From UHGV virus genome UHGV-1706803: a stretch of 18,780 nt of DNA; one strand, 5' to 3'. Below the pieces are notes generated by a model, which had not been told where the DNA came from, searched no databases, and was given only the letters and a program-made list of their open reading frames with translations. Position numbers and translations under genes: made by a program. This document shows, piece after piece, positions 402-18,262 of this stretch; the stretch's first letter is position 1, and the number at the start of each line of letters is the position of its first letter. Source of the stretch: a virus.

Positions 402-791
402 ATGGCTAAGGCCAAATGGCACAAACTCCCGGCGTTCACCATTCCGCTGTTTCAAAGTGCACATGTCTACTTCGCAACAACCAGAGAACAGTTTCAGCAC
501 GCTGATAAATACCTTGGCGGCAGCGGGGATGAGAAGCCATTCAATCTTGGGTTTGCAAGAAACTATGAAAACACTGATACGGGTGAGCGATGCTATCTGA
601 TTGGAGTATTCGATCAGCAGATCGCTACGCTCGTTCATGAGTGCGCCCACGTCTGCTTTTACGTTTGCTCTGATGTCGGCGTGACGACAAGGCCTGAAGA
701 TGCCAACGAGACGTACTGTTACATGCTGGACAGGATGGTTAATCACTTCCTGCCATTCATTCAGGAGAAACAAGATGTATCACTGGAATAA
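402..791 (+). CDS. Hypothetical 129-aa protein with an HExxH motif (LVHECAHV); candidate minimal zinc metallopeptidase-like protein
   Basis: ORF with GGAG upstream and coupled to the preceding ORF. HECAH is preceded by a hydrophobic strand (CYLIGVF) and followed by acidic residues about 19 aa downstream, a zincin-like arrangement. No homology search was possible. Confidence 0.65.
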   Translation: MAKAKWHKLPAFTIPLFQSAHVYFATTREQFQHADKYLGGSGDEKPFNLGFARNYENTDTGERCYLIGVFDQQIATLVHECAHVCFYVCSDVGVTTRPEDANETYCYMLDRMVNHFLPFIQEKQDVSLE

Positions 792-3029: not shown

Positions 3030-5195
3030 ATGGCCGACGAAAACAGACTCAATTCCATTCTGTGTAAGTTTGACGCAGACTGGATGGCGAGCGATGAAGC
3101 CAGAACCGAGGCGACAAATGACCTGTATTTTAGCCGAGTGTCGCAATGGGATGACTGGCTATCAAACTACACCACCCTGCAATATCGCGGACAATTCGAT
3201 GTTGTCCGCCCGGTGGTCAGGAAACTGGTCGCAGAGATGCGCCGGAACCCTATCGACGTTCTCTTCCGACCCAAAGACGGTGCTAATCCTGATGCAGCCG
3301 ATGTGTTGATGGGGATGTATCGTACTGATATGCGCCATAACACGGCAAAGATTGCCGTTAACGTTGGCGTTCGTGAGCAGATAGAGTCCGGCGTTGGTGC
3401 ATGGCGTCTGGTCACGCAGTACGAAGACAACGACCCAACAAGCAACAATCAGGTAATCCGACGCCTTCCAATCCATGAAGCCTGCTCACACGTCATATGG
3501 GACGCCAATAGCAAGCAGATGGATAAGAGCGACGCTAAGCACTGCACGGTGATTAACGCTTTGTCACGCAATGGCTGGAAAGAGTTCGCAGAGGATTACG
3601 GTATTGATCCTGACACCTTGCCATCTTTCCAGAATCCGAACGATACATGGCTGTTTCCGTGGGTATCGAATGATGTCGTCTACGTCGCTGAGTATTACGA
3701 GGTCGAAGAGAAGAAAGAGAAAGTCTTCATCTACCGCGACCCGCTGACAGGTGATCCGGTCAGCTATTACCAGCAGGATATCAAAGACGTCATCGACGAC
3801 CTGGCTAATCGTGGATTCATTAAGGTAGCAGAGCGTAAGGTCAAGCGTCGGCGTGTGTATAAGTCGATCATCACCTGCACGCAGATACTGAAAGACCGCG
3901 AGAAGATAGCTGGAGAGCATATCCCAATCGTTCCAGTGTATGGCGAATGGTCATTCGCTGGTGACAAGGAGTGCTACGAAGGAGTGGTAAGGCTGACGAA
4001 AGACGGTCAACGCCTTCGTAACATGATCATGTCATTCAACGCCGATATTGTTGCTCGTTCACCGAAGAAGAAACCGACCTTCTTCCCTGAGCAAATCGAA
4101 GGCTACGAATACATGTACGGTGGAAATGATGACTATCCGTACTATCTGCAGAACAGGACCGATGAAAACGGTAACGACCTGCCGATTGGTCCAATCTCCT
4201 ACATGGAAAACCCTGAAGTGCCGCAAGCCAACGCTTATATGCTTGAGGCTGCCACCAACGCAGTGAAAGAGGTGGCTAGTCTTGGCGTGGATGCGCAGGC
4301 AGCAAACTCTCAGGTCGCTTTCGATACCGTTAATCAACTGAACATGCGGGCAGACCTTGAGACATACGTGTTTCAGGATAACCTGGCTACCGCAATGCGA
4401 CGTGATGGCGAGATTTATGCCTCAATGGTCAACGATATTTATGACGTTCCTCGTCATGTAACGCTGACACTTGAAGATGGTAGCGAGAAAGACGTTCAAC
4501 TCTACGCGCAAGTTGTCGATTATCAGTCCGGCAATGTGGTCACACTCAACGACATTCGCGGTCGCTATGAGTGCTATACGGACGTTGGGCCATCCTTCCA
4601 GAGCATGAAGGAACAGAACCGCGCAGAGATTCAGGAATTGCTCACCAAGGTTCCGCAAGGTACTCCAGAGTTCCAGATGCTGATGCTGCAATACTTCACG
4701 CTCCTTGACGGTAAAGGCGTCGAGATGATGCGAGAGTACGCGAACAAGCAACTGGTGATGATGGGGCTGAAGAAGCCAGAAACACCTGAAGAGATGGAGA
4801 TGGTACAGCAGGCTCAACAGCAGCCGCAGCAGCCATCAGCAGAGCAAATTCAGGCGCAGGGTATCCTTCTGCAAGGTCAGGCTGAATTGCTCAAGGCAGA
4901 GAACCAACAGGCGCAGATTCAGGTTGAAGCCGCCAAGGTTGAAGCCCAAAACCAACTCAACGCCGCGAAGATTGCAGAAATCTTCAACAATATGGACCTC
5001 GACAAGCAGGCAGAACTGCGTGAGTACCTCAAGCTCGTAGGTCAATTCCAGCAACAGCGCAGCAAGGACGCTCGTGCTAACGCTGAGCTGCTTCTTAAAG
5101 ATGCAGACCAGACTCATTCACAACGCATGGATTTCGCGAATCTTATGCGTCAAGTTCAAATCCCCTCCGGCGGAGTAGCCGAGACACCTCAATAA
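3030..5195 (+). CDS. 1: Portal protein (P22 gp1-like), 721 aa
   Basis: Position after the large terminase; size close to P22 portal (about 725 aa); Q/A/E-rich helical C-terminal tail consistent with the P22 portal barrel. Confidence 0.93.
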
Positions 5196-14875: not shown

Positions 14876-15136
14876 TTAGCTGCTGTCTTTTTTATATAGC
14901 TCTTTGAGCGTATCAAAGACAATTTTCTTAACCATATCAGATTGTTGTTCTGCCATACGCTCTGCATCGTCAATGTAAACTGATGCAGAGCTTTGTTTAG
15001 CCAATTATTCTTCAATCGCTGCAATTATCTCTGAGTTCAGAGACCTGTTATTCATCTTCGCACGCTGTTTAATTTTCGCGTGGAGTTCATGCGGAAGTCT
15101 TAAGTGAAACTGCGCCTCGTCGTATTTGCTGTACAT
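14876..15136 (-). pseudogene. mnt: Mnt-like ribbon-helix-helix repressor gene interrupted by an in-frame TAA (43-codon N-terminal RHH, then stop, then 42 in-frame codons matching the Mnt C-terminal domain)
   Basis: Minus-strand translation from ATG at 15136: MYSKYDEAQFHLRLPHELHAKIKQRAKMNNRSLNSEIIAAIEE, then TAA (15005-15007), then LAKQSSASVYIDDAERMAEQQSDMVKKIVFDTLKELYKKDSS and a final stop at 14876-14878. The N-terminus carries the Arc/Mnt signature (QF.LR.P ... NGRS.NSE) and the C-terminus closely resembles P22 Mnt (...AERLADEQSELVKKMVFDTLKDLYKKTT, recalled). GAGG lies 8 nt upstream of the ATG. Confidence 0.75.
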
Positions 15137-15209
15137 CCTTGATGCCTCACCAGTTGGGTGGAATGGCATCGTAACCTACTGGATAAATACTCAATAGTAC
15201 CATTTCGGT

Positions 15210-17221: not shown

Positions 17222-18262
17222 ATGAAAAACAGAAACATACAGATGCTGAGAGGGGTTTCTATAATCCTCGTCCTCATTGCTCATGCAGATACAGTGTATT
17301 GGGAAGAATTGAAAAGTATAAAAAAATATATAGACCCAACCATTGGTGTGGATTTGTTTTTTATAATTTCTGGTTATCTAATGGGGGCAACCTTCATCAG
17401 AAAGGTATTATTTGACATTAACCTTAAACACACCATTTCATTTTATATCAAAAGGCTAAACAGGCTTTTCGTTCCGTGCCTATTCTGGTCTTTCATTGTA
17501 TTTGCTCTATTTGACTACTGGCACCTTGCCGGTTTTATAAAAACGCAAGAACAGGCTTTTAAGATATTTATATCTTCAGCGACATTTACTGGTAATATAT
17601 ATAATAGCATCAAGCCTAGTGGCTTCGGGTACTTCTGGTCATTAGGTGTTGAGTTCCAGTTTTATCTAATACTTCCGCTTATTCTATTAATATGCAAAGA
17701 CATGAAGTCATTAATTATCCTGCTTGTCATAATGCTTGGCTTCTACACCTGTGTTTTGAGTTTATTCCCTGAGTCATGGCAATACAGAGCAAATGCACTT
17801 TATATCGGACTTTTGATTTGGTGCGTTACTCAGAGTGAAGGCTATCACGAAATCAAGAAATCTATAAATAATAACGGATGTGTATATATTTGTTTTATCG
17901 TCGGCGCACTCATTCTTGCTGCCTTATGCTTATCCCCTGCATTATATAAAGTGCACGGAGTTAGCTTTACGGCTATATCTATTTTATTGGGATTGGCCTT
18001 CTTTATTTGTGTATGCATGGACAAACCAATAGCTGCATTTATATCAAAACCAATTGAGTTTATTGGTGATATATCTTTTTCCTTATACCTGTGCAACATT
18101 CCTGTTTATATTTTTGTGTCGAGAGAAATGTTTACGCGCGGAATGGGAAAGCCGGAAACTATGATTGTTTCTGTCGTATTAAGTATTGCGGTTGCAACTG
18201 CAAGCCGTTACACATTAGAAAAAATAGATTTTATAAAGTTAAATAAAAATCTAGTTAGGTGA
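17222..18262 (+). CDS. Integral-membrane acyltransferase family 3 protein, probable O-antigen O-acetyltransferase (Oac/OafA-like lysogenic conversion gene), 346 aa
   Basis: N-terminal MLRGVSIILVLIAHA and GVDLFFIISGYLMG motifs are characteristic of the acyltransferase_3 family; multiple hydrophobic helices; AT-rich composition; location downstream of the tailspike, as for oac in Sf6. Confidence 0.85.
   Translation: MKNRNIQMLRGVSIILVLIAHADTVYWEELKSIKKYIDPTIGVDLFFIISGYLMGATFIRKVLFDINLKHTISFYIKRLNRLFVPCLFWSFIVFALFDYWHLAGFIKTQEQAFKIFISSATFTGNIYNSIKPSGFGYFWSLGVEFQFYLILPLILLICKDMKSLIILLVIMLGFYTCVLSLFPESWQYRANALYIGLLIWCVTQSEGYHEIKKSINNNGCVYICFIVGALILAALCLSPALYKVHGVSFTAISILLGLAFFICVCMDKPIAAFISKPIEFIGDISFSLYLCNIPVYIFVSREMFTRGMGKPETMIVSVVLSIAVATASRYTLEKIDFIKLNKNLVR

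Follow-up and report, generated by a model that had tools for sequence, protein, structure and literature searches.

The window analyzed here, an 18,780-nucleotide stretch of DNA from the virus genome UHGV-1706803, carries near its left end a gene of 129 codons, which we designate ORF129. A prediction made earlier from the letters alone (the original prediction) had pointed to the sequence LVHECAHV in this gene and had proposed a zincin or SprT/Wss1-like metallopeptidase encoded between the lysis and packaging genes. The motif is present as described. Its residues had been given as H69/H73, which is ten too low; they are H79, E80, and H83. The gene and the codons discussed below are as follows.

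402-791, + strand: ORF129, with an ATG start and 129 codons, the end including the TAA stop (from the ORF list).
549-551, + strand: codon of G50, Gly in 133 of 134 sequences, at the start of the predicted strand 50-56.
636-650, + strand: codons of H79-E80-C81-A82-H83 (from the translation), encoding two predicted zinc ligands plus the predicted general base, all in helix 74-92.
705-722, + strand: codons of N102-E103-T-Y-C106-Y107 (from the translation), with E103 as the predicted third zinc ligand at the start of helix 103-128.
Within 705-722, + strand: codon of Y107, nearly invariant, a candidate catalytic helper.

ORF129 is a real gene. It is under strong purifying selection, with a dN/dS of 0.04-0.08 within the family when only pairs with unsaturated dS were counted. 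An antisense ORF of equal length at 384-773 begins with TTG, has no support, and was rejected as a mirror artefact. The product is a single-domain protein of ~15 kDa, in whose sequence no signal peptide or membrane segment was found by direct reading. RefSeq labels it 'hypothetical protein' in near-identical E. coli prophages.

Conserved residues and predicted fold

Conservation was examined in 137 diverse sequences that are 24-57% identical to ORF129. H79, H83, and E103 were invariant in this sample, and E80, G50, G93, and Y107 were conserved in at least 90% of it; an alignment restricted to the core gave the same picture, with five invariant positions. A first search had returned 205 homologs, and HE[CV][AGS]H was found at the same position in every full-length one, so the motif is not a chance occurrence. 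The conservation of these catalytic-looking residues, among the strongest in the protein, makes an enzymatic role likely. Position 86 is Phe in 97 of 134 sequences and position 89 is Leu or Cys, and no conserved His was found at positions 84-100 of the family alignment. C81, C85, C89, and C106 were considered as metal ligands or as a cysteine switch and were rejected. Outside the enterobacterial branch these positions hold Leu, Ala, Thr, or Cys, and they are therefore core positions for small or hydrophobic residues, not ligands.

An AlphaFold2 model of ORF129, calculated from a 71-sequence alignment, was confident (mean pLDDT 85, pTM 0.81). In this model, strands 11-13 and 20-25 are followed by helix 28-37, strands 50-56 and 63-69, helix 74-92 with HExxH, and helix 103-128 with E103. 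The hydrophobic segment that had been noticed ahead of the motif (CYLIGVF, residues 64-70) coincides with predicted strand 63-69, and the acidic residues said to follow the motif are found as RPEDANE. The minimal zincin core was described by Iyer et al. in 2017 (PMC5512222) as a sheet of three strands with an N-terminal helix, a helix bearing HExxH, and a helix bearing the Glu. The model places a small sheet and a backing helix N-terminal to the active-site helix, and HExxH, conserved family-wide, lies on that helix. The invariant E103 lies on the helix downstream of HExxH, where it would coordinate the metal in the gluzincin manner. As modeled, the topology of ORF129 is that of a minimal zincin core, in agreement with the zincin idea.

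We compared the family with known metalloproteases. HExxH and NE are separated in ORF129 by 19 residues, as they are in thermolysin. When a profile of the core was searched against PDB sequences, all eight matches with E up to 10 were zinc metalloproteases, namely myroilysin, peptidyl-Lys metalloendopeptidase, and thermolysin. Thermolysin residues 136-179 aligned to the core profile with H142/H146 in register with HExxH and N165-E166 in register with N102-E103; H142, H146, and E166 are the ligands of thermolysin. With the family profile, the best sequence match to a solved structure was the astacin-like myroilysin (E=0.014), and the alignment was collinear from an N-terminal W-P strand through the backing helix and the strands up to HExxH. 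Foldseek against viral models gave 28 matches at E up to 1e-3, which included proteins labeled SprT-like, PolyVal metallopeptidase, and metalloprotease, with TM scores of 0.5-0.9.

Several family assignments were tried and rejected. The SprT-like model (PF10263) gave ORF129 12.1 bits against a gathering cut-off of 25.6 bits. The mod_HExxH/aKG-HExxH peptide beta-hydroxylase model (TIGR04267) gave 17.6 bits against a cut-off of 40, over only 30 residues around the motif. A PADLOC match to PDC-M15B (E=0.034 over 25 residues) was rejected as a sign of membership. For ImmA/IrrE (COG2856), there was no Pfam or NCBIfam match, the gene lies at a late-operon site with no adjoining regulator, and the viral Foldseek match labeled IrrE had a TM score of only 0.34. 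The Pfam Astacin model was matched by one of the 137 members (E=0.0086). The metzincin signature HExxHxxGxxH is absent from the ORF129 family, which has Phe at 86 and Cys or Leu at 89, and in the SprT, Wss1, and Spartan families the third ligand is a histidine. As both the metzincin signature and this third histidine are missing, we filed ORF129 as zincin-like with a gluzincin-type site. In our reading of the sequence, ORF129 would not belong to SprT/Wss1; the original prediction thus stands for the minimal zincin and falls for the SprT/Wss1 membership, with its sub-threshold scores. Conservation and modeled topology together make it probable that ORF129 is a zincin-type metal hydrolase.

Family members and genomic context

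ORF129 matched the PHROG 1365 HMM with E=3.3e-37 (residues 1-125 against profile positions 3-121 of 127). The original prediction had assigned the protein to no family from sequence alone. For Pfam this was borne out, as neither Pfam nor NCBIfam has a model above threshold for the family; PHROG 1365 could be assigned, and its annotation is 'unknown function'. The same PHROG was matched by HkcC, Bp4 orf2, Det7 gp68, genes of RS-PII-1 and RSB3, and five metagenomic members. An exhaustive profile search of 1.8 billion representatives yielded 811 clusters (50% identity; E up to 1e-3), nearly all of 100-180 aa and typically about 120 aa. A second large protein search, made with the diverse alignment, brought back the enterobacterial 'hypothetical proteins' already found, none of them annotated in Pfam. 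Members were found in N4-like Bp4, Kuttervirus Det7, the Ralstonia phiKMV-like phages RS-PII-1 and RSB3, and jumbo phages. Foldseek on predicted viral structures extended the family to Pseudomonas, Erwinia, Acinetobacter, Achromobacter, Serratia, and Eggerthella phages and to crAss-like phages.

ORF129 shares 58-60% identity over 124 residues with three further members of PHROG 1365: ST64T Orf-129, phage L Orf129, and epsilon34 gp70. Where the position can be read from the record, ST64T Orf-129 and the epsilon15-like gp70 lie, like ORF129, in the slot that separates lysis genes from terminase genes. HkcC of P22 and HK620 (121 aa) is ~35% identical to ORF129 and retains HECAH and NETYCY. It differs in locus, lying in the immI region, with gene 16/sieA (or hkcB) on one side and the mnt/ant region on the other. 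For several Salmonella phages, the record contains two places with a match; in the window, no second copy of the hkcC type was found, and none lies at the place where P22 and HK620 carry theirs. In the epsilon34 genome paper (PMC2629481), hkcC is listed among genes of unknown function. No functional study of the ORF129/HkcC family was found in the literature searched (orf129, hkcC, anti-defence metalloproteases, and accessory-gene screens). A longer form of 173-180 aa was observed in mEp021-like phages (L008 5001-5543; P0116-P0120, P0127, and P0128), and its 180-aa version falls in PHROG 1365 as well. It has an additional acidic linker and, at the C-terminus, a strongly basic tail (...KKGKRKPKAKEALVPRVMNFKRG) that could bind nucleic acid. 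The gene for this form is located between the spanin gene and an Sf6-type small terminase gene.

The features around ORF129 are listed below.

158-400, + strand: ORF80, a DUF2560 protein and homolog of P22 ORF80 (Pfam PF10834, E=2.6e-42).
392-404, + strand: candidate coupling junction read from the sequence, with GGAG at 392-395, the upstream TGA at 398-400, and ATG at 402-404.
396-993, + strand: cassette of ~600 bp, ORF129 plus 202 bp downstream, present here and absent from phage APC_JM3.2.
953-972, + strand: conserved junction AGAAAGGAGCTAAGTAATGG (Shine-Dalgarno sequence, stop, start), which ends the ORF129 module in several mosaic relatives.

Translational coupling of ORF129 to the 80-aa ORF had been claimed. 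We found the one-base gap between TGA and ATG and the GGAG at 392-395, which make coupling plausible. Neither a sigma-70-like promoter nor an intrinsic terminator flanks ORF129 on its strand, and the window has no Rfam match; with no promoter or terminator of its own, ORF129 is therefore read as part of a longer transcript. In the near-identical E. coli prophages (99% over 380-1063), the order is antiterminator, holin, endolysin, spanin, DUF2560, ORF129, gp3, and terminase. The remainder of the window forms a virion module of the P22-like (Lederbergvirus) type, with gp3, large terminase, portal, scaffold, and coat as well as tail accessory and ejection proteins, and its tailspike carries the P22 head-binding domain. 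On the + strand, a 35-codon ORF at 10-117 (MAKKILCGGGLMERHRLLQ...) has its match in the N-terminus of ST64T Orf-118, the C-terminal part of which is the DUF2560 region. The ORFs at 10-117 and 158-400 are separate here and fused in ST64T, which is either a split or fusion or an artefact of DUF2560 annotation.

We next compared the window with Escherichia phage APC_JM3.2. In blastn, positions 1-395 and 994-1600 of the window aligned at 97-98.5% identity, with nothing between them. A profile search of all six frames of APC_JM3.2 found no member of the family, and the DUF2560 gene is intact there. As a near-identical phage lives without any member, ORF129 is dispensable, and DUF2560 is independent of it. 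The gene order in the prophages and the missing 396-993 segment in APC_JM3.2 bear out the description of this place as a variable region between lysis and packaging genes.

Neighbors were counted in 79 IMG/VR loci of the close family. DUF2560 was the gene immediately upstream in 47 of them, and the gap to the upstream ORF was 1-3 nt in 46. Immediately downstream, a Dec-type decoration gene was found in 26 loci and the 64-aa ORF of the window in 14, and the others included a 46-aa Lys-rich PHROG 2423 protein. An obligate two-gene module with DUF2560 was rejected, since only 47 of the 79 loci have it and DUF2560 is found without a family member. A conserved link to the lysis cassette or the terminase was rejected as well, since members lie in the immI region, in a cluster of small genes in an N4-like phage, and in Kuttervirus clusters. 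In the Ralstonia podoviruses, the family gene directly follows the spanin gene at the genome end; in Bp4, it lies in a small-gene cluster beyond the terminase gene, and in Det7 among unknown genes. No neighbor is kept across the whole family, and the context therefore gives no direct functional lead.

In sibling prophages with an identical ORF129, the same slot holds a Tad2-like gene (PF11195), a few hundred bases upstream. It lies between the lysis cassette and DUF2560 (1974-2453 in locus L019 and 306-785 in L020), shortly ahead of the position at which the window begins, and PF11195 is the anti-Thoeris sponge family. These observations suggest that the lysis-terminase slot of P22-like phages is an anti-defence or accessory island.

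The downstream side of the cassette showed further small features. The same 20-26 bases as at AGAAAGGAGCTAAGTAATGG precede the next gene, dec or a Hoc-like decoration gene, in ST64T and in Klebsiella and Citrobacter prophages, and through this junction different upstream ORFs come to share the ending '...GAK*'. It has the look of a sequence that marks module boundaries and is used in mosaic recombination. In the Klebsiella and Citrobacter prophages, the 46-aa Lys-rich PHROG 2423 protein overlaps the 3' end of the ORF129 homolog (4374-4514 in both L013 and L016), and the next gene, before the terminase, is a Hoc-like or another decoration gene. A 64-codon Cys-rich ORF at 775-969 on the + strand (CQCQRCPCCG...) overlaps the end of ORF129 by 17 bases. 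It is called by metagenome gene callers and not by RefSeq, its GC by codon position is atypical, and it has no homolog in phage records or PHROGs; as a partner of ORF129 it is therefore doubtful and was rejected. A 29-codon micro-ORF at 969-1058 on the + strand stops 5 bases short of the gp3 start. Its version in APC_JM3.2 has 23 codons and shares the 19 C-terminal residues, and the right-hand boundary of the cassette falls inside the N-terminal codons of the micro-ORF, which may encode a conserved leader peptide preceding the small terminase gene.

Two other genes of the window were noted at its far end. A 346-aa membrane acyltransferase is encoded at 17222-18262 (+), just after the tailspike gene (Pfam Acyl_transf_3, E=3.7e-29), and is probably a lysogenic-conversion gene of the O-antigen acetylase type. 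A 54-aa Arc-like ribbon-helix-helix repressor is encoded at 15005-15169 (-) (Pfam Arc, E=3.9e-12). It lies between the gene 16 homolog and the tailspike gene, in what is a reduced immI-type region.

Proposed function and alternatives

We propose that ORF129 is a cytoplasmic gluzincin-type zinc hydrolase and dispensable cargo that would cleave a protein of the host or of a competing phage, a reading towards which, taken whole, we lean. One Zn2+ would be held by H79 and H83, both on the active-site helix, together with E103, where the following helix begins. E80 would serve as general base, activating the zinc-bound water, and Y107, one helical turn past E103, would help to stabilize the transition state. 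The small sheet, with strand 63-69 running into the HExxH helix, would bind a peptide substrate, and G50 may have a part in substrate binding. The protein would be expressed with the late operon, and its target would be a protein of the host or of a rival phage, in counter-defence or host takeover. We infer the zinc binding, the peptidase activity, the time of expression, and the target. That ORF129 is accessory and non-structural is very probable, and we regard it as dispensable cargo, not a component of the virion, of lysis, or of packaging. That it is a protease directed at host or competitor proteins is put forward tentatively, because of its dispensability, its fast-turnover slots, and the Tad2-like neighbor. 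It is unlikely that PHROG 1365 as a whole consists of pan-phage stand-alone minimal gluzincins that cut a specific immune or stress-response protein of the host, as a form of proteolytic counter-defence.

Several observations weigh against this proposal. The AlphaFold2 model has no significant 3D similarity to any solved structure, and every sequence link to known zincins is statistically weak (E 0.014 to 1.5). The shared metal-site geometry of H79, H83, and E103 is a deduction, any substrate is conjectural, and the Tad2-like neighbor offers only guilt by association. PADLOC gave no meaningful match for ORF129 and nothing for five other family members or ORF80. In a 2025 catalogue of 268 anti-defence proteins, a text search of the main text found none of the terms protease, peptidase, metallo-, zincin, or proteoly-; proteolytic counter-defence would therefore be new, yet it is without precedent there.

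Because the original prediction had named SprT/Wss1, we considered whether ORF129 is a SprT/Wss1/Spartan-type protease that removes DNA-bound or crosslinked proteins, for instance host proteins on phage DNA around packaging. SprT-like is the only Pfam family that recurs among the 137 members, in four of them and below threshold (best E=1e-4); on family member P0250 it gave E=0.009 over 46 residues with 16.3 bits. One database source names a homolog 'SprT-like family protein', and two viral Foldseek matches are so labeled. The acidic linker and very basic tail of the mEp021-type form could bind nucleic acid, and ORF129 lies just upstream of the terminase genes. However, all of the SprT scores are under 25.6 bits and mostly cover ~16 residues around HExxH, there is no conserved third His, and the invariant ligand candidate is E103 at thermolysin spacing. 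The 129-aa form also has no zinc-ribbon or DNA-binding module, and hhalign of the family profile with E. coli SprT (YggI), a weak test against a single sequence, gave 5.6% probability on an irrelevant stretch. We therefore hold this explanation to be very unlikely. A zincin fold could also serve something other than proteolysis, either the zinc-dependent hydrolysis of some small molecule, for instance a nucleotide immune signal, or the stoichiometric blocking of a host protein by a metal-stabilized binder. The Tad2-like protein in the same slot of the sibling prophages belongs to a family of immune-signal sponges, ORF129 is very small with no visible substrate-recognition domain, and no result here separates peptide from non-peptide substrates. 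On the other hand, the near-invariant E80 as general base argues against a purely structural metal site, every weak sequence link points to a peptidase, and we know of no zincin-fold enzyme that degrades immune signaling nucleotides. A function of this kind appears quite unlikely.

The position of the gene raises two more explanations. A helper of virion assembly or packaging, processing for example a head decoration, scaffolding, or terminase protein, would explain the place between DUF2560 and the decoration and terminase genes. In close relatives the gene is just upstream of the small terminase or a decoration gene, Dec-like in the 26 loci counted above and Hoc-like in others. We consider such a helper highly improbable, as heads of the P22 type mature without proteolysis, the genome of APC_JM3.2 lacks the gene entirely, P22 has no family member in this slot and carries the paralog hkcC elsewhere, and the window keeps ORF129 without a decoration gene. 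The sites in other phages (immI in P22 and HK620, after the spanin in Ralstonia podoviruses, among small unknown genes in N4-like phages and Kuttervirus) count against it too. It is likewise extremely doubtful that ORF129 is a lysis-associated factor working with the holin, endolysin, and spanin cassette. The gene is downstream of that cassette in P22-like and mEp021-like phages, and in two Ralstonia phiKMV-like phages it comes right after an Rz-like spanin. Against this, the protein has no signal peptide or membrane segment and therefore cannot reach the envelope unaided, Rha, Tad2-like, and DUF2560 genes often intervene, and the HkcC, N4-like, and Kuttervirus members are not beside lysis genes.

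The proposed zinc hydrolase would be of interest for several reasons. The family is large, with its 811 clusters spread over unrelated phages of Enterobacterales, Ralstonia, Pseudomonas, Achromobacter, Acinetobacter, and Eggerthella and crAss-like phages, and Pfam has no model for it. One of its genes, hkcC, is carried by the classic model phage P22, in which the family can thus be tested directly. The family shares fast-turnover accessory slots with a known anti-defence family (Tad2-like). If ORF129 is a protease of host proteins, the means of counter-defence used by phages would come to include proteolysis, and a very small, tractable zincin scaffold would be gained; if it cuts immune or stress proteins, it may represent a new mechanistic class. 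If it is a peptidase of the housekeeping type, the gain would be one of annotation, from hypothetical protein to a minimal gluzincin-like metallohydrolase of the HkcC family.

Comparison with known systems

The family had been catalogued as PHROG 1365, HkcC, and Orf129, and the fold would not surprise a specialist. The original prediction for ORF129 is partly supported. Compared with astacin-like metzincins such as myroilysin and BMP1, ORF129 has one strand fewer and is half the size. The zincin-like MPTase domains of phage and plasmid polyvalent (PolyVal) proteins and the C-terminal domain of ArdC (PMC5512222) have the same minimal core and a mobile-element context, and one Foldseek match carries the PolyVal metallopeptidase label. 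ORF129 differs from them in that it stands alone, is not a domain of a giant injected protein, and is without ArdC-N or another partner domain. No direct sequence match to them was seen in this analysis. ORF129 also resembles the minigluzincins proabylysin and projannalysin, which we take to be soluble minimal M48/M56-like scaffolds, stand-alone gluzincin catalytic domains of ~100 aa.
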